Shown here: in pieces, positions 43,979-56,620 of the stretch
Position numbering within the stretch: position 1 is the stretch's first letter
How the letters are laid out: every line of letters starts with the position of its first letter
DNA from: an uncultured Dehalococcoidia bacterium
GTDB lineage: Bacteria; Chloroflexota; Dehalococcoidia; Lucifugimonadales; UBA826
Assembly: GCA_964500645.1 (NCBI GenBank)
Contig: CAZCOH010000003.1
Span: 23,536 to 87,535, forward strand
Direction: 5' to 3'
DNA: 64,000 nt
Position numbers and translations under genes: made by a program
Notes under the pieces: generated by a model
Seen by the model: only the letters and a program-made list of their open reading frames with translations
Told to the model about the DNA's origin: nothing
Databases searched by the model: none

Positions 43979-44728
43979 CTAATCGTCTTTCCAGAATCGT
44001 TCCTCTAAGAACTCAAAGCCTAGCGGAACTACTTGTTGTTTGACATCCTCAATCATTCCAGGATGACCGCAGGCGTAGATCATTGTGTTGATAGTCTCTA
44101 GTCCGAACTCGCGTATTTTTGATTGCACGATTTTGTTGACTCTGCCTTTTTCGCCATTCCATGAGTCATTTTTATTTTCTGTTGGTCTACTTACTGTCGG
44201 CACAAAGGTTAATAAATCAGGGCGCTCTTTAGCTATGGCTATAAATTCGTCATCATAAACAAACTCATCTTGGTAGCTTGCTCCTTCAAGGACGTAAAAG
44301 TGATGGCCTTCCTTATTAGCCTCAATATAGTCCCTAACAAAACTGACGTAGGGTACAACTCCAGTTACAGTCGACACCAGGAACTGATTCTGCTTTTCTT
44401 CTTTAAAAGTGAATATACCTTTCGCTCTGGGTCGTATAGTTACTTTGTCCCCTTCATGCAGGTCCCATAAAATAGGAGTGAGTACACCACCTTCTTTAAC
44501 AGGTACTAGTTCGATGAATAATTCGATGTATTTTTCATGTGGTGCTGATGCTATTGAATACGCCCTTTCAATACCTTTATGGCCTATTGTGCAGTATTGT
44601 CCGGGTTTGAAACTGTATCCATCGGGTTTCTCCAGCCATACAAGTGTGAGATCTTCTGTTTTATCTTGTCTCTCAACTATCTGAACTTCCGCTAAGGGAG
44701 GCTTTTTAATTAACTTTTTAGTGGCCAT
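43979..44728 (-). CDS. fpr: Ferredoxin/flavodoxin-NADP+ reductase (bacterial Fpr type)
   Basis: FKPGQY, RAYSIAS, YACGHPGMI, EERFW. Confidence 0.85.
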   Translation of the reverse strand: MATKKLIKKPPLAEVQIVERQDKTEDLTLVWLEKPDGYSFKPGQYCTIGHKGIERAYSIASAPHEKYIELFIELVPVKEGGVLTPILWDLHEGDKVTIRPRAKGIFTFKEEKQNQFLVSTVTGVVPYVSFVRDYIEANKEGHHFYVLEGASYQDEFVYDDEFIAIAKERPDLLTFVPTVSRPTENKNDSWNGEKGRVNKIVQSKIREFGLETINTMIYACGHPGMIEDVKQQVVPLGFEFLEERFWKDD

Positions 44729-44762
44729 TCATTCTCCATATTTTTTAATGTCGTGTACGGTT

Positions 44763-47438
44763 CTATTCTTTTTCTATTCGTACATGCTTCACTTGCAGAG
44801 GCTGTACCTTGAGCATAGGATCTTCATCCTTACTTGCTGTCAATTGCTCCATCAGACTTCCAAACAGGCTTGTTGAAGCTACTAGGCCGCTATGCAATCC
44901 GTTGAGGTGAGCAGTGCCTTCTTTTTCGAAGTCCTCACCGATTAATTTTATTTTGTCGCCTTCTGAAATCCCCGCACTTTGTGCGTCCTGTTCATTTAGT
45001 TCGATTATTTCTGTCCGGGTTATCGAATGCATATTATCTATAATTGATATGTCTGCTTCCCTGTCTGGTTCGTGCAATACGCGACCAGGTACAAATGACA
45101 TTGGGAATTGAGGATCGTGATGAGTTGCATCAATTGATTCTAGCGTTAGAGGTTGGAAGCTATATTTATCTGGCTCCGAGTATTCCCAAATTTGACCAAA
45201 CTTTTCTATTTGATTGATATCTAAGCTATTGTAGTGTTCAACGTTAGCTTGCAATTCCTCGAAGATTTCTAGCTCACTGCTAAAGTCAAAGGACGAGCTT
45301 CCCATTCTCTTAGCAAGTTGAGATATTATTCTCCAGTCCTCGTCTGCATCCCCTGTTGTCCCAATCGCCTTTCTGACTTTGTGCACTCTTCTTTCCATGC
45401 TTGTGTAGGTTCCTGACTTCTCTGCGAACGTGACAGAAGGGAAGACAATGTCGGCTTTATCCGTTAAATGGTTTTCGAAGGTGGAGTGTACAATTAGTAG
45501 TTCAGACTGGCCCAAAGCTTCTTCTAGACCACCTGATATCTGGTCAGAATAGGATATGTTATCTCCTATTATCTGGACTGCTTTAATCTTTCCTTTAGAA
45601 ATAGAGTCAGACAGGTTAACAATTCCGACGCCATCTTTTGAAATCGACTTATAACCTGGACCTAGATTTGGCACGCATCCAACGTCTCTTGAACCTTGTT
45701 GATTAGCACCTGAGAATAGAGGATATAGTCCGGCTGAAGGCTTACCTATATTACCGGTCAGCAGAAGTAGATTCACCAATGCTTCTACCGTTTTCGGTTT
45801 GAGGCTTTTATCAATAGTGTCTAGGCTATATAAAACCGAAGAGGAGTCTGCTTTGGCGAATAGCCTAGCAGCTTCTCTTATAGAATCTTGAGGCAAGCCT
45901 GTTAGTTCTGAAATTTTTATCAGATCAAAATCCCAAATCGAGTTTCTAAGTTCTGAGAATCCCTGACAATTTTCTGTTGAGAATTCGTGATCCTCTAATG
46001 ATTCATCTAAGATGGTTCGGATTATTCCCCCAATTAGGTGACTTTCTGAATTCAGTTTTGGCCTTAGCCATAAATCTGAATATCTGGTTAGTTCAGTTTC
46101 TCTTTGATCAATTACGATCAGCTTTGCTCCCTTGGAAACGGCCTGTTTTATTGGTACAGAAGCAACATTTTGATCTTCGGTAATGTTTGATGAGACTACC
46201 AATATGCAATTTGAGTCTAGTAATTCCCAGGTACGTGATGTTGACCCCTGAATCCCTATCATGGATTCAAGAGGCTCAACCAAATCAGGATTTGTGTTAG
46301 ATGCGACGTCCACGTTGGGTGAGTTCATAATCTGACGTGCAAACTTTTGAGCAATAAAATTATCCTCGTTAGTTCCGCGGTCAGATGCCACAATGGCATA
46401 GTCTCCGTTTTTGTAATTCGCTAGTTTCTCAGACGCATAATCCAAAGCTTCTGGCCAGGTGGATTCAGTCAATGTGCCGTCTATTCGGATTAAAGGTTTG
46501 GATAATTTTTTCTTATGATTTACAAAATCCAAACCGAATTTGCCTTTAAAGCACGCCATTCCATGGTTTGCTTCAGCTTCACGAGAAGCTATAGACCGTA
46601 TTACCTTGTTACGTTTATTTACGTCCAAATCTAACTGGCAACCAACTGGGCAGTGTGGGCACGTGGTAGAGATTTGTTTTTCTGCTTTGTCCCATTTGTA
46701 GTCCCTTTCCACGATGGCTCCAGTAGGACAAACATCTATACATGCTCCACAGAATTCACAACCTGATTCTAAAAGGGAAATTCCTTGCGAGGTTCCTATT
46801 ATGCTCCGTCCTGAACGTTCCTTTAGGGTTATGGCTTTATCACCTCTAACCTCGTCACAGGCCCTAACACATCTCGAGCATACGATGCACAGATTCATAT
46901 CCATGTCCCAATATGGGTCTTTTACATCGAGTGGGAGATGACGATTGTTGTAGGTAAGAGGAGTGGTTAAATCCATCTCCATATATCTTACCGTGTCTTT
47001 CAGTTCACATCTTTCATTTTTAGGACACGTTACACACCTGTCATTTACAGTAACATGGCGCAGGCAAACATCAGTTGGACCACACAGATCGATTCGATGG
47101 CAATTAAGACATCCATGCGGATGTTCAGATATAAGAAGCTCCATTATGCCTTTTCTGAGGTCTACGATTTCGTCAGTATTTGTCTCTACCCTCATGCCTT
47201 CCGAAACTGGTGTAGTACATGAGGCAGGGCTGCCAGGAAGGGCTCGGTAACTTCCATCTGGTGTGGGTGCCTCTGCTTTAACTACACACATCCGGCATGC
47301 GCCATAAGGCTTCATTCCTGGGTAATAACAGAGGTACGGAATGTATAGGCCATTGTCCATAGCAGCTTGTATGATCACGCTTCCAGAATCAGCTTGAACC
47401 TCCACTCCATCTATCGTCAGATTAACTTTATCTGCCAT
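44763..47438 (-). CDS. NuoG/FdhA-like Fe-S protein with a molybdopterin-oxidoreductase fold, apparently lacking the Mo ligand
   Basis: [2Fe-2S] C..CRMC..C, His-ligated cluster, CIVCSRC, CEFCGACIDVCP, TCPHCPVGC..CFKG. No Cys/Sec-His after NVD. Confidence 0.85.
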   Translation of the reverse strand: MADKVNLTIDGVEVQADSGSVIIQAAMDNGLYIPYLCYYPGMKPYGACRMCVVKAEAPTPDGSYRALPGSPASCTTPVSEGMRVETNTDEIVDLRKGIMELLISEHPHGCLNCHRIDLCGPTDVCLRHVTVNDRCVTCPKNERCELKDTVRYMEMDLTTPLTYNNRHLPLDVKDPYWDMDMNLCIVCSRCVRACDEVRGDKAITLKERSGRSIIGTSQGISLLESGCEFCGACIDVCPTGAIVERDYKWDKAEKQISTTCPHCPVGCQLDLDVNKRNKVIRSIASREAEANHGMACFKGKFGLDFVNHKKKLSKPLIRIDGTLTESTWPEALDYASEKLANYKNGDYAIVASDRGTNEDNFIAQKFARQIMNSPNVDVASNTNPDLVEPLESMIGIQGSTSRTWELLDSNCILVVSSNITEDQNVASVPIKQAVSKGAKLIVIDQRETELTRYSDLWLRPKLNSESHLIGGIIRTILDESLEDHEFSTENCQGFSELRNSIWDFDLIKISELTGLPQDSIREAARLFAKADSSSVLYSLDTIDKSLKPKTVEALVNLLLLTGNIGKPSAGLYPLFSGANQQGSRDVGCVPNLGPGYKSISKDGVGIVNLSDSISKGKIKAVQIIGDNISYSDQISGGLEEALGQSELLIVHSTFENHLTDKADIVFPSVTFAEKSGTYTSMERRVHKVRKAIGTTGDADEDWRIISQLAKRMGSSSFDFSSELEIFEELQANVEHYNSLDINQIEKFGQIWEYSEPDKYSFQPLTLESIDATHHDPQFPMSFVPGRVLHEPDREADISIIDNMHSITRTEIIELNEQDAQSAGISEGDKIKLIGEDFEKEGTAHLNGLHSGLVASTSLFGSLMEQLTASKDEDPMLKVQPLQVKHVRIEKE

Positions 47439-47440
47439 TT

Positions 47441-49180
47441 TTAATCTCCAGCCGCGAAGTCAGTTGCATATGGTCTTGTGTTTTTAGGTACGATTTTCGG
47501 AGAATTGCAAGCGTCCGTTGGACATATACCATCCTCGATATGAGAGCGGAAATCCTCTTCAAAATGTGTAATGGCAGATCTGATCGGTCCGAAACCTAGT
47601 TGACCATGTCCGCAAAGGGATCCTGCTTCCATGGTGCCACCTATACTTTTCATCAACTCCATGTCACCAGGCTTACTTTCAAAATTCGCTATTCTTTCTA
47701 CTATTTCTAAAAGATGTTCCATCCCTAATCGACACGGAAAACACTTTCCGCACGATTCAAATTGACAGAAAGCTACTAGAACTCTGGTTAGGTCGACTGC
47801 ACAGACTTTATCACTGCCCACAATTATTCCACCGGAACCGAATATTGCGCCTGCTTCCCTCATTTCATCAAAATCTATATGGATGTCTCTGCTGTCTGGC
47901 CCGAGTACACCACCTAAAGGTCCTCCAGTTTGGAGTAATTTAAGAGATCTACCTTCTGCTACCCCACCTCCTAAATCGTCTACGACTTGACCCAGGGTCA
48001 TTCCCATTGAGACTTCGTACAGCCCAGGCCTGTTGACGTCACCACTAAGACAAACAATGGCTGTTCCAGTACTTCTGTTTACGCCGATTGAGGAGAACCA
48101 ATCTGCTCCTTTTGAAATTATTTCAGGAGCGTATGACAGGGATTTTACGTTATTTATGTTACTAGGCTTACCCCATACGCCAAAGGCGGCAGGAAATGGT
48201 GGGCGATATCGTGGCATGGATCGCTTGCCTTCAACAGCTTCCATCAATGCGGTTTCTTCCCCTGCTACATATGATTCACCTGTTAGTGCAACTTCCACGT
48301 CAAAGTTGAAGTCACTATCAAATATATTTTTCCCTAGCACACCAATTTCATATGCCTCTTTAATAGCCTGTTCAGTTCTGTCTATTGGGCCGTTATGGCC
48401 ATGACGTATGAAAACTATTCCGTTTGTCGCTCCTGTAGCATATCCAGCTATTGCTAGTCCCTCTATAAGGGTGTGAGGATCACTCTCTAAAATCCCCTTA
48501 TCGTTATAAGCTCCTGGATCTCCCTCTTCACAGTTACACAGAATGTATTTGGTTGGACCTGGAGATCCGACCAGAAAACTCCATTTCACGCCAGTAGGGA
48601 ATGCGGCTCCACCTCTGCCACGTAGTCCAGAATTTTTGACTTCGTCAATGACCTCGGATGGTGACATCATAGATATCGCTTTATTTAGACCACTGTACCC
48701 ATCATTAGCTATATATTGGAGAATGTCAGCGGGAGCTATGTGCCCTGCATTCCTTAATGCCACTCTATTTTGAAGCTTTATTCCTGGAATTGAACTTAGA
48801 GGCACTACACCAGAGCTAGTGATATCTTCCTCACCAATATAACCGAGTATTTTGCTCCCAGGTATAGAATCCTCGATAAGGTAAGATTGAACAATAGTAG
48901 GAATTTCTTCAGGGGTCACATTCTTGAAAAATAATCTCGGATGACCTTTCTTTTTTATTTCAATTATTGGTTCGGCATAGCAAAGGCCTAGACATCCAAC
49001 TTCATCCACATTTGCTTCGACGTTTAGGCTGGATAATGTTTCTAAAATAGTTTTTTTGACCCGAAACGCTCCCGCTGCGTGTCCACACATAGCACTTCCT
49101 ACTCGAATCAGAGGGGTGTCTCCATAGACGCGGTCGTTCCAGTGAACATCTGCTTTTTCTTTAATACTTTCGTAAGTCAA
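47441..49180 (-). CDS. NuoF/HydB-like FMN/NADH-binding subunit with an N-terminal thioredoxin-like domain
   Basis: GLRGRGGAAFPTG, EEGDPG, YVAGEETAL, ESCGKCFPCR, SLCGHG. Confidence 0.9.
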   Translation of the reverse strand: MTYESIKEKADVHWNDRVYGDTPLIRVGSAMCGHAAGAFRVKKTILETLSSLNVEANVDEVGCLGLCYAEPIIEIKKKGHPRLFFKNVTPEEIPTIVQSYLIEDSIPGSKILGYIGEEDITSSGVVPLSSIPGIKLQNRVALRNAGHIAPADILQYIANDGYSGLNKAISMMSPSEVIDEVKNSGLRGRGGAAFPTGVKWSFLVGSPGPTKYILCNCEEGDPGAYNDKGILESDPHTLIEGLAIAGYATGATNGIVFIRHGHNGPIDRTEQAIKEAYEIGVLGKNIFDSDFNFDVEVALTGESYVAGEETALMEAVEGKRSMPRYRPPFPAAFGVWGKPSNINNVKSLSYAPEIISKGADWFSSIGVNRSTGTAIVCLSGDVNRPGLYEVSMGMTLGQVVDDLGGGVAEGRSLKLLQTGGPLGGVLGPDSRDIHIDFDEMREAGAIFGSGGIIVGSDKVCAVDLTRVLVAFCQFESCGKCFPCRLGMEHLLEIVERIANFESKPGDMELMKSIGGTMEAGSLCGHGQLGFGPIRSAITHFEEDFRSHIEDGICPTDACNSPKIVPKNTRPYATDFAAGD

Positions 49181-49215
49181 TTTTTTGTGACCGCCGTTTT
49201 AATTTTGCTATGGAT

Positions 49216-49704
49216 TTAATGGGAGATATCATCTTTGGACATGTTTTTGATTAAATCTACGACATGGTCAGGGTTAACTTTGCCAAAGAGTTCGTGGTTT
49301 AAATTTACAACTGGAGCTTGTGAACAGGCTCCTAAACAAGTGTTAAACCTGAAAGATACTTTGCCGTCAGAGGTGTCACCTTCTGTTTCTAGTTTTAATT
49401 CATCGAGCACTTTGTCTAATATGTTAGCTGCTCCAGCAAGATGGCAGGTTGGACCCCAACATACTTCTACGGTGTGATCTCCAGGGGGTGTAAATCTAAA
49501 GTTGGGGTAAAAAGAGGCAACCCCGTATACAGCGTTTTTAGAAGTTCCCATTTTTATAGCTACTTGCTCTATTGCTTCATTGGGGATATATCCAATCTCG
49601 TCTTGAACAGCAAGCAGAGAAGAAAGCACTGTCACGGTAGGGCGTTTCTGGTTCTGTATGGCTATGTTAATTTGATCGACTAGACTTTCAGTTTCTGGTG
49701 CCAA
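49216..49704 (-). CDS. NuoE/HydC-like [2Fe-2S] subunit
   Basis: GVASFY, CWGPTC, TCLGAC; TTG start with GGTGAGG upstream. Confidence 0.9.
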   Translation of the reverse strand: MAPETESLVDQINIAIQNQKRPTVTVLSSLLAVQDEIGYIPNEAIEQVAIKMGTSKNAVYGVASFYPNFRFTPPGDHTVEVCWGPTCHLAGAANILDKVLDELKLETEGDTSDGKVSFRFNTCLGACSQAPVVNLNHELFGKVNPDHVVDLIKNMSKDDISH

Positions 49705-49775: not shown

Positions 49776-51086
49776 CTAAACGAAATTTTTGATGACAATA
49801 TCTGCTACTTCATGACCCATTTTTACGCTGTAATTTGTACCTCTGTCTTCTGGGTAAATCTGTGTGGTATTCGCCAAATACAAATTGTCTACTCCAGTCA
49901 AATGTGAGGGGATAGTTGAAGAATAGTTTTTACCAATAATAGGTTGTGCTCCGTCTATTTTGAAATGATATTTACGCAGCATCCAGGACTTCTCGAAATT
50001 CGGATTTATTTTCGAGATATGAGGAAGATAATGTTCTAGAAGTTCTTGTTCGCTCATTTGGTACATTTCGCTATCTCGAGTAAGGTAATTTGAAAGATAA
50101 ACTATGTGTTTTCCACCGTAGTTTTCAGTACCGACCAGATTCGTGTGTTCTATAACACCTACAAACGGTGTATCCCGATCTGCTACGTTGAGCCAGTATA
50201 TATTGGATAATGGTCTGTCGAGAACTAGTATAAGTAGGACTGCAGACATGTAAGGTACGGTAGACAATTTTTTTCTGTAGTCGTCACTGAGTCCCTCAGT
50301 AATCATATTAAAGATGTGAGATGGGGTCGTTGAAATCACGGCGTCAAATTTTTTAAAATGATTGTTTTTTCCCACTTCAATCCCTTCTAATTTGTTAGAA
50401 GTCACTTTGATTTTATTTACAGGAGTGGACATCACAATGTTTGCTCCCTGCGAGATTGTTTTATTCAACAGAGTTTCAAAGACTTCTTTAAAGCTACCAC
50501 TAGGGTATCCAAGCATTTCTTTTGAAACTCCTTTTCTCGATGCAAAGCGGGTATTCATTTTTCCCCATACCCATGCCATTCCAACTTCTTGATAATGGGT
50601 TTCCCCAAATTTGCCTTTCAGCATAGGTTCCCAAAAAGCTTTGAAGGCTTTTTCGCCTGCATTTTTCTGCAACCAATCCACAGCAGTTATATTTTCAACT
50701 TCTGCCCAGTTTTTTATAAACCGTATCTTCAGTGAGGAAAGACCGAGCCTGATTCTGTTGAAAGGAGATAGTGGTGTGTATTTAAGCAAGTCTAGAGGGG
50801 ATGAGAAGTTGTAAATTTTTCCGCCTGATAAAGTACCTACGCTAGAAGGGAACCAATCAATAGTTTTTTCAAGACCGATTTCTTTGCATAATTTGATAAT
50901 GTCAATATCGCTTGTGAACCAGTGATGATAGCCCTTTTCCAAAGGGAACCCTTCTATATTAAAAGTAGCTGCGTGGCCACCTACAAAATCATCCCGTTCG
51001 TATATAGTCACGTCATGATTTCTTTTTGTTAAATAATAGGCGGCCGTAAGGCCAGTCGCGCCCGCTCCTAGTATAGCTATCTTCAT
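49776..51086 (-). CDS. FAD-dependent oxidoreductase (amine oxidase/PPOX-like fold), substrate unknown
   Basis: GAGATGLTAA, ERDDFVGG, YHHWF, YPEDRGTNY. Confidence 0.75.
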   Translation of the reverse strand: MKIAILGAGATGLTAAYYLTKRNHDVTIYERDDFVGGHAATFNIEGFPLEKGYHHWFTSDIDIIKLCKEIGLEKTIDWFPSSVGTLSGGKIYNFSSPLDLLKYTPLSPFNRIRLGLSSLKIRFIKNWAEVENITAVDWLQKNAGEKAFKAFWEPMLKGKFGETHYQEVGMAWVWGKMNTRFASRKGVSKEMLGYPSGSFKEVFETLLNKTISQGANIVMSTPVNKIKVTSNKLEGIEVGKNNHFKKFDAVISTTPSHIFNMITEGLSDDYRKKLSTVPYMSAVLLILVLDRPLSNIYWLNVADRDTPFVGVIEHTNLVGTENYGGKHIVYLSNYLTRDSEMYQMSEQELLEHYLPHISKINPNFEKSWMLRKYHFKIDGAQPIIGKNYSSTIPSHLTGVDNLYLANTTQIYPEDRGTNYSVKMGHEVADIVIKNFV

Positions 51087-51089
51087 TTG

Positions 51090-52142
51090 TTATTCCGTTT
51101 TCGAGCTCTGGTTATTTATTTTCGATAAGGATAAAAGACTTATCCCATCTAACCATAAAAAGATCTGCCCCAGTATTATCATAGACAACAGCAAGCAAGA
51201 ATGAGTTATTGTGGCGAAAGCCGCCGCATCAGGTCTTTCAACTGTGCCATGCGGCATTAATACTAGAGTTTCTCGTGCAATCAACTCAAATAATCCTACA
51301 CCGCCTGGAGCTAATGGTATGGACGAACCAATGTTGGTGATGCCTGTCACTAATATGGTTGCTGAAAATGTAGAGATTATTCCGTCAAAATACATGTTAA
51401 GGTCCAGGCTTAGAGCTACAAACAAAAACAAGAAAGTTTCACAAATCCAAATCGGTATAGAAAGTAACAGTACTTTTGTTATCATCGAAATGCTTTTAAG
51501 AGATTCCAACCCGTCAAAAAGCTTTCCTGAGGAATCTATCAATTTCAGATGCAATCTTTGGGGGACGAATTTGGTAAATTTATGCAAGAATTTTTCGGTT
51601 TTTTTTCGAAATAATGCAATAAATATCAATGCACCGAATAAGGCAACGAAAGGAGCCACAAATATAAAAACCAAAAAAGGTTCAGGGATTTTCGCTAAAG
51701 ATGATAGACCGTGAACCGTATCACCTATGGGAATGAAAATCGAAGTGATTCCTATTAAAAATATTAAGGCTAAAGCATCTAATATCCTTTCAATAAAAAT
51801 GGTACTCAATCCTGTGACAGTGCTTACGTTTTCCCGCTTACTTAAATAATAACCTCTGACCAACTCTCCTAGTCTGAATGGCAGAAGATTGTTTGCCATG
51901 TATCCAACCACAACAACAGGGTAGAGCCTGAAAGAATTTACTGTTTTCGTTGTTGTTAATAAATATTTCCATCTCAATGCCCTAAACCAAATGCTTAACA
52001 TATATATCAGGATGCCTGGTATCAAATAAATATATTCTGCCCTTTTAAAGGCCGATTTCATAAGGTCAAAGTCCGAGGTGTAGAAAAATATGACTAGAAG
52101 CAATAACCCTAGTGATGATGCGACTATGAATTTAATTAACAT
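51090..52142 (-). CDS. Lysylphosphatidylglycerol-synthase TM domain / AglD2-like flippase family protein
   Basis: RALRWKYLL, YMANNLLPFRLGELVR, IERILD, PLAPGGVGLFE. Confidence 0.85.
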   Translation of the reverse strand: MLIKFIVASSLGLLLLVIFFYTSDFDLMKSAFKRAEYIYLIPGILIYMLSIWFRALRWKYLLTTTKTVNSFRLYPVVVVGYMANNLLPFRLGELVRGYYLSKRENVSTVTGLSTIFIERILDALALIFLIGITSIFIPIGDTVHGLSSLAKIPEPFLVFIFVAPFVALFGALIFIALFRKKTEKFLHKFTKFVPQRLHLKLIDSSGKLFDGLESLKSISMITKVLLLSIPIWICETFLFLFVALSLDLNMYFDGIISTFSATILVTGITNIGSSIPLAPGGVGLFELIARETLVLMPHGTVERPDAAAFATITHSCLLLSMIILGQIFLWLDGISLLSLSKINNQSSKTE

Positions 52143-52161
52143 ATTTGTTGCGATATATAAT

Positions 52162-54354
52162 TCATTTGGGAGATCTGATTTCAGTTGAAATTAAATTAAT
52201 TTCAGGGAAGTTTTCTTTTGTGTATAAATAGGCATCTTCACTCCCTATGTTTTCTGATACTCCGTCTCTATGTAACCAATATGACAATAGTCTGTGCCAA
52301 GAGTTTAGGTCCGCTACACTCCCAATAATTTTTTTTATGCTGACTTCTCGGTATGTGTATTCTGGAAACCACCACCTGTGAGGGATGATGACGCCATTTT
52401 TAAATCCACTGGATATTATTTTATTTGAACTGACCTCATTGTTTGAAGAATGGACCAATATCACGTCGGCGGTTATTGTTTGCTCTATGGGCCCAGAGTT
52501 ATAAACGGGGTAACCAACGTTGGGACGGTTTCTTAGATACCATGACCAAGGCCATGTAAACCCATTGGTCTGGTCGATCTGTATATCGGTGGATAGGCTG
52601 ACTTGATCAATAGCTACTGCCACGGTTTTAAGGTCTGGTGATGTTTGAGTGTATACAATCATCTCTACTGGTATGTCGGCGTTTTTAAAGCTGGCATGGA
52701 TAGATGTTCTGATTGTGAGAATAGCTAGGAATAGAACGAATCCAATGATTACAAAATTTATTCGATCAGAGTTCTGGTTGTCTAAAATCTTTTTGATGAA
52801 TATGTAGAGGCCTACGAACAATGACAATGCAATTGTTATTGCTATGACTGTTGAAACATCACTGTTAGTGTCTTTAAATGATCTAATGCTTGTCCATAAT
52901 AATATGCAAGCCACTGGCATTGAAATTATGGAAATCATGTTTTTGATTGATGTGAGATTTTGAACTCTAGTTGTCGTTAAAATATTCCCTATGTAGTGTC
53001 CCGACAATACAATTAGTGGAACTGTTATGTTTACCAGCAACCAAGGCATTTTTTCGCTTGCTACTGTGTATAGAATGAATGTGGTGACACACCAATATAT
53101 TAGAAATAATTTGAATCTGCTTGGATTACTTAGATAGTGAAGTATTGCAAACAAAGCTACACAAAGAGACAGATACTCGTATAGTGGGGTGAGCATTAAA
53201 TAATAATGAAGAGGTTGCCCTCCCCTGGCTTCCCCTTGTTGAACAATCCAATAGCCCAGAGATTGCCATATGCCCGATCTTATTCCCCCTCCGATATTTG
53301 TTAAAAGAGTGGTGTAAATTAAAATCCAGATTGTGTAAAAAATCAGAGCACACCGCCACCATATGCTCCAACACCATCTGTAACCGATGTAAAAAGAAAA
53401 TCCTAGTAATGCTGATACAAATGTAAAGGCGAGTACTTTTCCTCCTCCGATTGGCATGCCTATCATGCCTTTTTCGCTCAATAGTGTGATGTTCATCCAC
53501 GATATTGGAGGGAAGTTTTCCGTAATACCTAGAAATGCTGACCATTGAGGTAGAGTAACGGAAGCAATCACAATCAATAACGACACTTGAGGTGATACTT
53601 TGGATAATGAAATTCCACCTCGATAGTAAGTAAAAGTGTTTTTAAGAAATTTTACAAAAAGATTGGGATATGTAGTTATTGATAGATCGATAGGTTCAAT
53701 TGTGCGGTTCCATACTTCATACAGGCAATAAAGTATCAGGTAAAGTCCTATTAGTCCTGATATTAAATAAGCACTTTCCTTTGTGCCAAAACTTAATGCC
53801 AATAGACCGGTAAAGAAGTACAAATATTTGACTTTAGAGGTCTCTAAATATTTCCACATAGCGACAATTATTCCGAAAGTAAATACAGCCATTAGAATAT
53901 CGTTACGTGCGAATCTACTAAAGTAGAGTAGGGCAGGGGATATTGCAAACAACAGTGAGGTGATTACTCCTCCAGTTCTACCTAGCGAGCTCCTAAAAAG
54001 AAAAGGCATAAGTGTGAGGAGTGATCCTGCTAAAACGTATATAAGTCTTGCCGTGAAATCGCTGTCGCCAAACAGGAAAAATATTCCCGCGGTGAGCTCC
54101 ATTTGAAGTGGCCCATGCATCATCGGATTGTGAATTAGCCCTAATCCTTCAGAAAGTTGCCATGAGTGAAAGGCATGTAGACTTTCGTCATGGTGCATAG
54201 CTCGATCCCCTAAATTGTAGAGCCGGAGAAGTAAAGCTCCTAAAAATATGGTGAGGTATAGACCAATTTCAATAAAAAACCTTAAACGGGTTCTATATTT
54301 GGAACTTATATTACTTAGCAATCTATTCTCTGATACGGTAAATTCTGGGGCCAT
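52162..54354 (-). CDS. TIGR03663-family (Agl23-like) PMT-related GT-C membrane protein; start uncertain (ATG 54354 or TTG 54321)
   Basis: HHDESLH (DE dipeptide), MHGPL (HGP), ARL, SRFARND; polytopic. Confidence 0.8.
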   Translation of the reverse strand: MAPEFTVSENRLLSNISSKYRTRLRFFIEIGLYLTIFLGALLLRLYNLGDRAMHHDESLHAFHSWQLSEGLGLIHNPMMHGPLQMELTAGIFFLFGDSDFTARLIYVLAGSLLTLMPFLFRSSLGRTGGVITSLLFAISPALLYFSRFARNDILMAVFTFGIIVAMWKYLETSKVKYLYFFTGLLALSFGTKESAYLISGLIGLYLILYCLYEVWNRTIEPIDLSITTYPNLFVKFLKNTFTYYRGGISLSKVSPQVSLLIVIASVTLPQWSAFLGITENFPPISWMNITLLSEKGMIGMPIGGGKVLAFTFVSALLGFSFYIGYRWCWSIWWRCALIFYTIWILIYTTLLTNIGGGIRSGIWQSLGYWIVQQGEARGGQPLHYYLMLTPLYEYLSLCVALFAILHYLSNPSRFKLFLIYWCVTTFILYTVASEKMPWLLVNITVPLIVLSGHYIGNILTTTRVQNLTSIKNMISIISMPVACILLWTSIRSFKDTNSDVSTVIAITIALSLFVGLYIFIKKILDNQNSDRINFVIIGFVLFLAILTIRTSIHASFKNADIPVEMIVYTQTSPDLKTVAVAIDQVSLSTDIQIDQTNGFTWPWSWYLRNRPNVGYPVYNSGPIEQTITADVILVHSSNNEVSSNKIISSGFKNGVIIPHRWWFPEYTYREVSIKKIIGSVADLNSWHRLLSYWLHRDGVSENIGSEDAYLYTKENFPEINLISTEIRSPK

Positions 54355-56620
54355 CTTGATTTCCAAATACCAGGTCCCCAATTTCATCGAATTTTCCGAA
54401 GTCTGTGTTCGAATAATCTTGATCCGTATTACTTCCGATGAAAACGTATTTGACCTGGTAGCTTGCAAGTAATCTTTTTGTTAATCCGTGATCCTCGGAT
54501 TCGTATATAACCTTGACGTCTTCAATCCTTTTCTCTATTTCTTGTATTTGACCTCTCCATTGAATCTGATGACCCGGCCAATTAATTATGTTTGGTATAC
54601 CAGTACTACTGGATATTTGAGCGTAATTCCCCCATTCTCCGACTATTTCGAGGATACCGTCTTTTGGAGATATATTTTTTCGTGCGTACATGATGGCATT
54701 ATAAAGTTTCGGGTTATCGACTTTCAGAAATTTTAGTCCGTCCAAAGTTTTGTGCGGAGATTCAGATGCTCTTGTAGAAATTGAGGCAGGAGCGTAATAG
54801 AGTCCCATAGAAACAACAATAACTGTGATCGCAATTACTAGGTTTAATGTCAACTTTTTCAATCCTGATGAATCTTTCATATAAGCATATAGCGAATACA
54901 TAGAGTATCCGGCGGGTATGGAAAGTATGATCCAAGCCTGGTAATAAAGCTTAAAAACCGTGTTCATGCGATTACCATATACATCCCCGATGTATATAAA
55001 TTCTGGTATTAGTATTAATAACAATCCAGACGATATTAGAAATAATGATAGCGCTTTTGGACTAAATCCCTGGTTCATAGTTAATGAAATGGTAGTTAGA
55101 GAGCATAAGAAAACTAATGCTGTGATCAGTGGAGTGAAGCCCCTGATCCCAGTGTCTAGATTTGTCCCAATTTCGGTCGTAAATAGGCTGAATATCCACG
55201 GCGATATTGCTACCGCAATTGCTATTAATATGTTTGTTTTCCAAAGACGTGAAATCGGAGATTTCCAAAAATGCATCAGTGAGCTTGGCATTATCACTAT
55301 AAAGAGTGGGCCCCACATTATTAAACCATGTCCGATCCCTGTTTTTACTTGGGTAGTAAATATTCCAGATGCAGAAGTTTGGAAGTCATATAAATATGGG
55401 GATAGCAATAGAATACTGAGAATAAGCATAGCAGCTGGTATCCAAAGCATTTTCACATCGAGTTTTGAATCTGTAGCTAATATTTTCAAAAAGAATATTG
55501 AAAACAAAGAAGCTATTAATATTGGTAAATTCCATAGATTTGAGAAACTAGCTGTGAATAGACATATTGCCGATATGACACACGTGAAAATGTTTGTTGC
55601 ATTAAATTGAGTCAACCGTTTGCTATTTGTAAATGTGAACAAAATTGCTATGAATGTGACGATAAAAGGCGCAGACATTACGTGTGGATGTAGGTCTCCT
55701 AAGAGGTAGCTAAAAAAAGGGAATTCTGTGATCGTGTAATCTAGACCTTTTAGTTCGCATTGGTTCCCAAAATAATTCGTTATCCTGGAAGCTTTAAACC
55801 ACCACCAGAAGTCGACTGGTCTCCAGGAATCGACAACTGTAGTAACCTCATCAGTCATTCCATCAATACAAACCAAGTTCCAAAACGAAGAAGATCCAAT
55901 CATGTTTTGTCGGATCAGTTCCATAAAGCCTTGCAAATTAGCAAGTAAGATCGCAGAAATTACTGAAATAATGCCAAATAAAAACCGTGTTGAAAGCTTT
56001 GGTATCTTTTTTAACAGAGTCGTAGATAAGCCAAATACACTTATTGCAACAAGGCTAGGTACAGTGGCCATACTTAGGTTATATGCAATTTCAGGCCTAA
56101 CTGCAGTAAGTTTACCTATATTTCCGAATATCCAATATCCGAAATAGTAGTAGCTAATATTCGTATTTTTCATCCAAGGGTCAATTGGACCACCTGTGTC
56201 TGAGACCAGCATAGCATTAAGAAACGCAAAATCCATGAGCTGTTCAGTATGGTTTATTGCGGGGTTAAGATATCTGACAAATGAAAATAAAAGGAAAGTA
56301 ACTAGAAATACGCACTCACATGCAAAAAGGTATTTCCATCGGTTTTGTAGATAGGACAGGAATTCATTTTTGTTATAAATAACAATATATCCAGATCCTA
56401 CGATTAGCAGTGCTAGGATCAAGTAAATCCAAATGATCAATGTGCCAAAAGGCACAAATAAATTTGTCATCCATGAAGCCAGAGCGATTGTAGCTAATCC
56501 TAAGGCTTTCGAAAAACAATAGCCCTTGTCTTCAGATCCAGCAAAAATTTTGAAAAGAATTGGTAGAAATATAAAACCAATTAATTCAATTACAAGTAAC
56601 CAAATTAAGGGAGCCATCAT
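54323..56620 (-). CDS. Chlor_Arch_YYY (TIGR03662/DUF2298) membrane protein
   Basis: TEQLMDFAFLN, DPW...ISYYYFG, ITEFPFFSYLLGDLHPH, TVFKLYYQAW. Confidence 0.88.
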   Translation of the reverse strand: MMAPLIWLLVIELIGFIFLPILFKIFAGSEDKGYCFSKALGLATIALASWMTNLFVPFGTLIIWIYLILALLIVGSGYIVIYNKNEFLSYLQNRWKYLFACECVFLVTFLLFSFVRYLNPAINHTEQLMDFAFLNAMLVSDTGGPIDPWMKNTNISYYYFGYWIFGNIGKLTAVRPEIAYNLSMATVPSLVAISVFGLSTTLLKKIPKLSTRFLFGIISVISAILLANLQGFMELIRQNMIGSSSFWNLVCIDGMTDEVTTVVDSWRPVDFWWWFKASRITNYFGNQCELKGLDYTITEFPFFSYLLGDLHPHVMSAPFIVTFIAILFTFTNSKRLTQFNATNIFTCVISAICLFTASFSNLWNLPILIASLFSIFFLKILATDSKLDVKMLWIPAAMLILSILLLSPYLYDFQTSASGIFTTQVKTGIGHGLIMWGPLFIVIMPSSLMHFWKSPISRLWKTNILIAIAVAISPWIFSLFTTEIGTNLDTGIRGFTPLITALVFLCSLTTISLTMNQGFSPKALSLFLISSGLLLILIPEFIYIGDVYGNRMNTVFKLYYQAWIILSIPAGYSMYSLYAYMKDSSGLKKLTLNLVIAITVIVVSMGLYYAPASISTRASESPHKTLDGLKFLKVDNPKLYNAIMYARKNISPKDGILEIVGEWGNYAQISSSTGIPNIINWPGHQIQWRGQIQEIEKRIEDVKVIYESEDHGLTKRLLASYQVKYVFIGSNTDQDYSNTDFGKFDEIGDLVFGNQDGPRIYRIRE

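Follow-up and report, generated by a model that had tools for sequence, protein, structure and literature searches.

A row of four tightly packed genes on the minus strand of a 64,000-nucleotide (nt) window from an uncultured Dehalococcoidia (SAR202) bacterium probably encodes the membrane half of a system for extracytoplasmic glycosylation that draws on a lipid-linked sugar. The window, by which we mean the whole stretch of DNA analysed, lies on contig 3 of a metagenome-assembled genome (MAG) of 2.07 Mb that is 93% complete. Read along the minus strand, the genes encode a YYY protein (TIGR03662/DUF2298; 54323-56620, 765 amino acids (aa)), an Agl23-type protein with a PMT_2 domain (TIGR03663; 52162-54354 from an ATG, the longest open reading frame (ORF) reaching 54468; 730-768 aa), a stand-alone UPF0104/LPG_synthase_TM protein resembling the MprF flippase domain (51090-52142, 350 aa), and a PRK07233-family flavin adenine dinucleotide (FAD) enzyme of the amine-oxidase/phytoene-desaturase superfamily (49776-51086, 436 aa), hereafter referred to as the flavoenzyme. 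All four proteins exceeded the curated hidden Markov model (HMM) cut-offs of their families, which confirmed by HMM the labels TIGR03662, TIGR03663, LPG_synthase_TM and FAD oxidoreductase that an original prediction, made from the DNA alone, had assigned. The co-orientation and tight packing that it described also held. The YYY stop codon overlaps the Agl23-type start by 32 nt (ATG at 54354) or is separated from an in-frame TTG by a 1-nt gap, and the following junctions are spacings of 19 nt (Agl23-type to UPF0104) and 3 nt (UPF0104 to flavoenzyme). The motifs it had named were found as well, ISYYYFGYW in the YYY protein and HHDES and MMHGP in the Agl23-type protein, and were invariant or nearly so across 35-37 homologues.

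The arrangement was conserved in related genomes. One genome per GTDB species was scanned for relatives of the YYY protein, giving 499 confirmed stretches; locus counts were based on the best 80 of these, all of which came from Dehalococcoidia/SAR202 MAGs, and synteny was counted over the 75 loci with at least 7 kb of downstream DNA. All four genes occurred in the same order at 48 of these 75 SAR202/Dehalococcoidia loci, with identities of 31-44% for the YYY protein, 31-50% for the Agl23-type protein, 34-48% for the UPF0104 protein and 48-59% for the flavoenzyme. As the order is kept at identities of 31-59%, the four-gene arrangement is not due to chance. Two of the remaining loci were without UPF0104 only, and five held only the two large genes. 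Inserts between cluster genes at other SAR202 loci encoded transposases, molybdopterin oxidoreductase, leucine-rich repeat and STAND proteins and one extra PMT_2 protein; as transposases or unrelated genes, they were rejected as missing components of the cassette.

At the level of whole genomes, an evenly drawn sample of 301 Chloroflexota genomes contained PRK07233 in 224 and YYY in 206. Both families were present in 205 genomes, the flavoenzyme only in 19, YYY only in 1 and neither in 76, the listed genomes without either family all being small-genome Dehalococcoidia. The co-occurrence of oxidoreductase and YYY protein, which had been put forward as a check, was therefore borne out, with 205 of the 206 YYY-bearing genomes carrying the flavoenzyme. 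Among 14 reference genomes, NF005560 (PRK07233) and TIGR03662 passed their cut-offs only in Haloferax volcanii and Methanosarcina acetivorans, and TIGR03663 matched four, including these two, with scores above cut-off in two. The description of the cluster as archaeal-style proved too narrow, because PRK07233 also occurs in Proteobacteria and an actinomycete.

The YYY protein matched TIGR03662 (Chlor_Arch_YYY) with 435.3 bits (cut-off 300.25) over residues 4-764 of 765, and DUF2298 with an E value of 2.6e-91. It is polytopic, with about 13-16 helices and a C-terminal soluble domain of about 145 aa. The ISYYYFGYW motif occupies residues 155-163, and Y157-Y159 were invariant in 37 sequences. The invariant residues of these homologues further include D31, which sits just past helix 1, E126, D130, D147, E299, D309, H311, H313, R551, H684 and R689. 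From this conservation, D31, E126, D130, D147, E299, D309, H311 and H313 are candidate catalytic residues or metal ligands, and the first four are also candidates for the first-loop acidic residue of GT-C enzymes. An AlphaFold2 model built from the 37 homologues reached a predicted local distance difference test (pLDDT) score of 89.4 and a predicted template-modelling (pTM) score of 0.93. When this model was compared with the PDB using Foldseek, matches 1-13 were all GT-C proteins (probability 0.89-1.00), and later matches, to transporters, fell below 0.1. The best were DPY19 (E 1.2e-6) and AglB (5.7e-6), followed by STT3, AftA (template-modelling (TM) score up to 0.50), PglB, AftD and Pmt4, with entries 7zlh, 7e9s, 3wak, 6ftg, 8if8, 6gxc, 6w98 and 9i5k among the GT-C matches. 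The C-terminal domain resembled the C-terminal globular domain of AglB (3vu0; probability 0.99, TMt 0.54). Lack of a GT-C fold had been set beforehand as a possible refutation of the pathway; for the YYY protein the pathway withstood this check, as the 13 best PDB matches all have this fold. The model thus predicts a GT-C fold with an oligosaccharyltransferase-like architecture.

This likeness did not extend to sequence. Sequence and profile searches of PDB chains with the three membrane proteins, including YYY, returned no match. PF02516 (STT3) found no match in the whole genome (93% complete), and the WWDYG motif is absent from the YYY sequence, in which the conserved C-terminal motif is WPGHQxQWRG. 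Membership of the STT3 family was ruled out on these two grounds, and since both tests fail, the YYY protein resembles STT3, AglB and PglB in fold only. Profile-profile comparison of the YYY and Agl23-type proteins gave no homology (probability 7%), so that a paralogous origin of the two as twin GT-C proteins is not detectable. In other Chloroflexota, two complete YYY modules are contained in single open frames of ~2500 aa, beside which lies a third YYY gene (for example G223:C1:1845661-1853321 and G130:C120:1754-9414), indicating that the family has expanded into tandem giant proteins in some lineages of this phylum.

The Agl23-type protein scored 247.3 bits, in two stretches, against TIGR03663, named flippase activity-associated protein Agl23 (cut-off 126.25); in the whole-genome search with this model the same gene gave 164.5 and 86.8 bits in a single frame. 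It also matched PMT_2 (PF13231) with 42.7 bits (cut-off 26.1, E 8.9e-11), and comprises about 12-14 helices followed by some 175 aa of C-terminal domain. Among 35 homologues, conservation was at least 90% for the motif R-A-M-H-H-D-E-S-L-H of the first loop, for the HGP motif and for D56-E57, located ~10 residues past the first hydrophobic segment. A first-loop Asp-Glu is a hallmark of PMT-type GT-C transferases and is catalytic there. Judged by these features, the protein is predicted to be a GT-C enzyme or a lipid-linked-sugar translocator.

YYY and PMT_2 modules each occur exactly twice in the genome. In the second pair, encoded on contig 10 (C10:1083-5492, + strand), a single 1469-aa protein joins an N-terminal PMT_2 module to a C-terminal DUF2298 module. 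That one genome holds a split pair as well as a fused one is good evidence for joint action of YYY and PMT_2 modules. Co-occurrence of TIGR03662 and TIGR03663 is already recorded in the family descriptions. The fused gene stands alone between an acetyl-xylan-esterase-like gene and CoA-transferase genes.

Such pairing would also be compatible with another division of labour, in which the Agl23-type protein is the donor translocator (a scramblase), the YYY protein is the only transferase, and the UPF0104 protein has some other job, such as carrier-lipid recycling, flipping of a second lipid or anchoring of the flavoenzyme at the membrane. Strict 1:1 YYY/PMT_2 pairs, sometimes fused, are expected of a deliverer-plus-transferase unit, and the Agl23-type gene lies directly beside the flavoenzyme gene, without UPF0104, in 3 of 11 full clusters from diverse Chloroflexota and in 2 SAR202 loci. 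The NCBI name of the family points in the same direction, as do the published assays of Haloarcula Agl23, in which the purified protein moved Man5GlcNAc2-PP-dolichol across proteoliposome membranes and a yeast rft1 deletion was rescued (Chen et al. 2024, PMC11182771). Papers citing the original work describe Agl23 of Haloarcula hispanica as a putative hexose-P-dolichol flippase supplying donor for N- and O-glycan synthesis at the outer face. However, the PMT_2 domain carries the Asp-Glu first-loop motif, catalytic in PMT-type GT-C enzymes, at the conservation given above. The reported link of Agl23 to hexose-P-dolichol use (as cited in PMC11182771) would be as readily explained by a transferase as by a flippase, and scrambling in vitro might also result from the binding of lipid-linked sugars by a GT-C enzyme whose role is a different one. 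We regard this other division of labour as the main rival reading and consider it unlikely; the assignment of roles among the three membrane proteins is uncertain, and the Agl23-type protein may transfer, translocate or do both.

In the reading that we prefer, flipping would fall to the UPF0104 protein. It matched PF03706 (LPG_synthase_TM) with 160 bits (cut-off 33.4, E 1.1e-46) over residues 5-325 of 350 and the TIGR00374 flippase-like domain with 89.5 bits (cut-off 43.2). The protein has about 8 helices and is stand-alone, without a second (aminoacyl-phosphatidylglycerol synthase) domain, and is a candidate flippase for the lipid-linked donor. UPF0104 proteins have been predicted to be glycosylation flippases, and in archaea their genes adjoin PMT/STT3-like and AglD-type genes (Makarova et al. 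2015, PMC5898192). In 21 of 40 loci from diverse Chloroflexota, the gene directly preceded that of the flavoenzyme on the same strand. Over 41 SAR202 loci, with start codons picked heuristically, this junction was the tightest of the cluster: the median gap was 13 nt, and in 18 loci the two genes overlapped by 4 nt. Long open frames that suggested UPF0104::flavoenzyme fusions were rejected as overlapping reading frames. Tandem UPF0104 genes before a flavoenzyme gene and two Agl23-type ORFs in a row were observed at L134 (6968-8995) and L138 (6928-8996) of other Chloroflexota, which makes these loci expanded versions of the cassette. A second UPF0104 gene in the present genome, on contig 26, has RsmG-like and QueG-like neighbours, as judged by sequence reading, and is uninformative.

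The flavoenzyme matched NF005560 (PRK07233) with 479.4 bits (cut-off 252) over residues 1-433 of 436 and Amino_oxidase with an E value of 4.3e-32. Its AlphaFold2 model (pLDDT 92) was closest in the PDB to rice phytoene desaturase (5mog, TM 0.86/0.81), followed by protoporphyrinogen oxidase (TM 0.81), with UDP-galactopyranose mutase further off (TM 0.76). Since every named family HMM other than PRK07233 scored below its cut-off, including HpnE (75 bits against a cut-off of 283), protoporphyrinogen oxidase (56/98), phytoene_desat (44/569) and crtI_fam (39/238), the likeness to these enzymes is one of fold only. GLF (PF03275) gave no match to the protein. No hydrophobic or transmembrane segment was found in it, so it should act at the cytoplasmic face. 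Eleven polar residues, H54, D60, R113, K159, R184, E190, N300, D303, E313, N316 and Q381, were invariant across phyla, a pattern that would fit a substrate with a phospho-sugar head group. Close homologues were only SAR202-type proteins (at least 55% identity) without functional names.

More distant homologues place the family among genes for lipid-linked sugars. Plasmids or chromids of Agrobacterium, Burkholderia and a Rhodobacteraceae strain (L097-L099) encode full-length homologues with 26-30% identity in an operon of the order UbiA-type polyprenyl-phosphate phosphoribosyltransferase, DprE1-like, DprE2-like, SDR epimerase, PRK07233 and GtrA. The Agrobacterium member scored 510 bits on NF005560, and its gene overlaps GtrA by 4 nt. 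The same lipid-linked pentofuranose donor pathway has been described for mycobacteria and Citrobacter O antigens (Kelly et al. 2024, PMC11127046). The UbiA-type protein of this operon (PRK08238, 486 aa) has ~200 extra N-terminal residues before its phosphoribosyltransferase-like part, and nearby large hypothetical proteins of membrane size (529-578 aa, no NCBIfam match) at L097-L099 could be GT-C partners. In the actinomycete Embleya, the gene of a homologue with 36% identity overlaps by 4 nt a preceding GT2 gene, which is itself preceded by a DegT aminotransferase gene. At Chloroflexota loci without UPF0104, flavoenzyme neighbours were enriched in GT2, DegT, GFO/IDH/MocA, GT4, Bac_transf and UDP-GlcNAc 2-epimerase genes, and GT2 was nearby in 6 of the 40 diverse Chloroflexota loci. 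In three phyla, then, PRK07233 genes keep company with those of lipid-linked-sugar metabolism, and their flippase partners come from two families that are not related. The modify-flip-transfer pathway of the original prediction gained support from these other phyla, in which PRK07233 is translationally coupled to GtrA or a polyprenyl-phosphate GT2 in donor-synthesis operons.

The fold of the flavoenzyme brings in a further explanation, namely that the flavoenzyme and the UPF0104 protein handle a non-carrier isoprenoid lipid of squalene-, hopanoid- or carotenoid-like type, by analogy with HpnE and HpnL. The GT-C proteins would then glycosylate that lipid or be mere neighbours, and the cluster would serve membrane-lipid remodelling rather than surface glycosylation. 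Besides the phytoene desaturase match, the second-best named HMMs of the two proteins are HpnE (75 bits) and HpnL (28 bits), and UPF0104 proteins have been proposed as general lipid translocators (bioRxiv 10.1101/2022.03.11.483950). Nevertheless, both HMM scores are far below their cut-offs (283 and 196), and in three phyla the family lies among sugar-activation, polyprenyl-phosphate-sugar and GtrA genes, not among terpenoid synthases. The invariant Arg, Lys, His, Asp and Asn residues would suit a phospho-sugar head group better than a plain hydrocarbon, and the 205 of 206 genomes noted above tie the flavoenzyme to a GT-C family. Lipid remodelling is accordingly judged improbable. A general role of PRK07233 as the archaeal polyprenol alpha-reductase was also judged unlikely, because the family is absent from the reference genomes of Methanocaldococcus jannaschii and Sulfolobus acidocaldarius. 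Both of these organisms use dolichol-type carriers.

The host genome encodes a possible supply of carrier and donor for the preferred reading, surface glycosylation from a lipid-linked sugar. UppS is present on contig 18 (263 bits, C18:2719-3384), and four small GT2s elsewhere in the genome have AglJ, PpgS, ArnC, PgfS and a haloarchaeal dolichyl-phosphate hexose transferase as their nearest named relatives. Neither MraY/WecA nor Bac_transf (the PglC/WbaP-type phosphoglycosyltransferase) was found in the assembly, which is 93% complete, so that a polyprenyl carrier is made in a genome showing no detectable pathway to peptidoglycan or to diphosphate-linked glycans. Because no enzyme initiating diphosphate-linked oligosaccharides was found, en bloc oligosaccharide transfer in the bacterial manner is unlikely. 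Subject to the same completeness, polyprenyl phosphate has no obvious users except monophosphate-linked sugar donors and GT-C proteins.

We infer every catalytic step of the following scheme, together with the step order, the donor sugar and the acceptor. UppS, a cis-prenyltransferase encoded elsewhere, would supply polyprenyl phosphate, onto which one of the four DPM1/ALG5/AglJ-like GT2s, also encoded elsewhere, would load a sugar at the cytoplasmic face. The soluble or peripheral flavoenzyme, made in step with the UPF0104 protein, would then edit the lipid-linked intermediate near its head group, the likeliest edits being oxidation or rearrangement of the sugar, or saturation or desaturation of the first isoprene unit. 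We give sugar modification (oxidation or ring rearrangement) the best single chance, slightly short of even, and modification of the carrier's first isoprene unit a somewhat smaller one; some other reaction takes the small remainder. The edited donor would be carried to the outer leaflet by the UPF0104 protein, and the two GT-C-fold proteins, probably acting as a pair, would transfer the sugar to a surface acceptor, possibly a protein of the envelope or of S-layer type, or else a glycan.

Several observations weigh against this scheme. A GT2 donor synthase was found neither in or beside the cluster nor among the inserts of related loci, and the four small GT2s elsewhere are all far below equivalog cut-offs, reaching at most 49 bits on the model for the haloarchaeal dolichyl-phosphate hexose transferase, whose cut-off is 375. 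The gene absences rest on a 93%-complete assembly. YYY occurred without the other three genes within 10 kb in 20 of the 75 loci, and only 11 of the 40 diverse Chloroflexota flavoenzyme loci adjoin YYY/Agl23 genes, these being the ones with the full YYY / Agl23-type / (UPF0104) / flavoenzyme row. The Fisher p value of 8e-52 for YYY/PRK07233 co-occurrence is uncorrected for phylogeny, and the Foldseek TM-scores of the YYY protein are modest (0.3-0.5). The nearest flavoenzyme folds act on hydrocarbon chains or tetrapyrroles, not sugars, so that donor editing is guilt by association. Finally, because the published activity of Agl23 is translocation, the UPF0104 protein would be redundant in a simple model.

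It could even be that the four genes form no functional unit but are neighbours by descent, with the flavoenzyme belonging to the downstream NuoE/NuoF-like redox operon. NuoE/NuoF-like genes (window 43979-49704) directly follow the flavoenzyme gene in 21 of 51 SAR202 loci, and the best 80 of the 499 loci all come from one class. This redox module may exchange electrons with the flavoenzyme or be an inherited neighbour. However, the neighbourhood was not seen in other Chloroflexota or other phyla, and where NuoEF is not adjacent, in further Chloroflexota classes and in other phyla, the flavoenzyme is still accompanied by UPF0104, GtrA or GT2. The gap to nuoE is 71 nt, compared with 3 nt to the UPF0104 gene, and co-occurrence with YYY at genome level reaches archaeal reference genomes. 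Mere adjacency is therefore very improbable.

Comparison with known systems showed partial parallels to the proposed glycosylation pathway. The second gene of the cluster belongs, above cut-off, to the same family (TIGR03663) as Agl23 of the Agl22/Agl23 system of Haloarcula hispanica (Lu et al. 2020, doi 10.1111/mmi.14577, as cited in PMC11182771). In contrast to that system, the cluster has no Agl22-type GT2 beside it and belongs to a bacterium, whose carrier comes from a UppS-type enzyme. It also includes a YYY GT-C, a UPF0104 protein and a flavoenzyme, which do not figure in the published account of Agl22/Agl23. The logic also resembles that of three-component systems such as GtrB/GtrA/Gtr*, mycobacterial decaprenyl-phospho-arabinose and Citrobacter ORF15/ORF14/ORF12 (GT136), which combine a polyprenyl-phosphate monosaccharide donor, a small flippase, an extracytoplasmic GT-C and auxiliary editors such as DprE1/DprE2 and SDR epimerases (PMC11127046). 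PRK07233 homologues sit in operons of this kind in Proteobacteria. Here, however, the flippase candidate is UPF0104 rather than GtrA/SMR or MATE, two unrelated GT-C-fold proteins in a 1:1 pair take the place of one, the auxiliary enzyme is a flavoprotein of phytoene-desaturase fold, and the donor synthase would be encoded outside the cluster, where candidates exist.

AglB/STT3/PglB and DPY19 (GT-C class A) provided the best structural matches of the YYY protein, including an AglB-like C-terminal domain, and share with it a many-helix core followed by an outward-facing soluble domain, whereas sequence homology, WWDYG and, in this genome, PF02516 are lacking. Archaeal neighbourhoods of UPF0104 (arCOG00899), PMT/STT3-like (arCOG00563) and AglD-type GT2 genes likewise set a stand-alone MprF-flippase-like protein beside a PMT-like GT-C and are predicted to flip lipid-linked sugars for surface glycosylation (PMC5898192). 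The YYY family and the flavoenzyme have no place in that prediction, and the GT2 is not adjacent in the present cluster. The flavoenzyme itself shares its overall fold (TM 0.86 to 5mog) and N-terminal FAD-binding motif with phytoene desaturase, protoporphyrinogen oxidase and HpnE, and like them is probably membrane-peripheral with a lipophilic substrate. It differs in identity, at 15-19%, and in its context of lipid-linked sugar rather than carotenoid, haem or hopanoid synthesis.

A broader proposal can also be made, which we put forward tentatively as possible though rather doubtful. PRK07233 would be an unrecognised fourth component of widespread systems for glycosylation at the outer face. 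Bound to UPF0104 or GtrA as its flippase, it would convert the polyprenyl-phosphate sugar, or the first isoprene unit of the carrier, into the donor form needed by the YYY-class GT-C. YYY/DUF2298 would be a sequence-orphan, oligosaccharyltransferase-shaped family that takes sugars from monophosphate-linked donors to glycosylate surface proteins and always works together with an Agl23/PMT_2 module, in organisms that, like this SAR202 bacterium, lack a diphosphate-linked glycan pathway.

The deep ocean is rich in SAR202 and other Dehalococcoidia, which are uncultured and for which there is no established account of envelope construction. Since the UppS carrier lipid has no obvious users except the cassette, its fused paralogue and a few small GT2s, the cassette is a prime candidate for building or decorating the cell surface. 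DUF2298 and PRK07233 were essentially absent from the literature searched, yet they occur in about 70% of the sampled Chloroflexota, and PRK07233 is found in lipid-linked pentose operons of Proteobacteria as well. As the YYY, PRK07233 and Agl23 families are matched in two genetically tractable species, Haloferax volcanii and Methanosarcina acetivorans, direct tests of the predicted functions do not require SAR202 cultures.

The flanks of the cluster have no relation to the cassette. They consist of a NuoE/F/G-like and FNR operon downstream and an amidase gene and ftsY upstream. Promoter and terminator scans of 49.5-58.4 kb gave 26 hits against 30.7 expected and 8 against 5.8, respectively, no better than shuffled sequence. 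In many SAR202 loci, ftsY was located within about 1 kb upstream of the YYY gene even where the other three genes were absent, which is probably inherited synteny; in the window, the amidase gene separates the two. Elsewhere in the genome, a small GT2 gene on contig 119 (C119:760-3094) is followed by genes for a 198-aa protein and for a polytopic membrane protein, the latter cut short by the contig end and without an NCBIfam match; this may be another lipid-linked glycosylation set. Furthermore, a 390-aa membrane GT2 on contig 52 (C52:4624-5796) resembled HpnB, with 155 bits, and CruG, a carotenoid 2'-O-glycosyltransferase, with 111 bits. Neither score reaches the cut-off of its model, but the resemblance hints at glycosylated terpenoid lipids.

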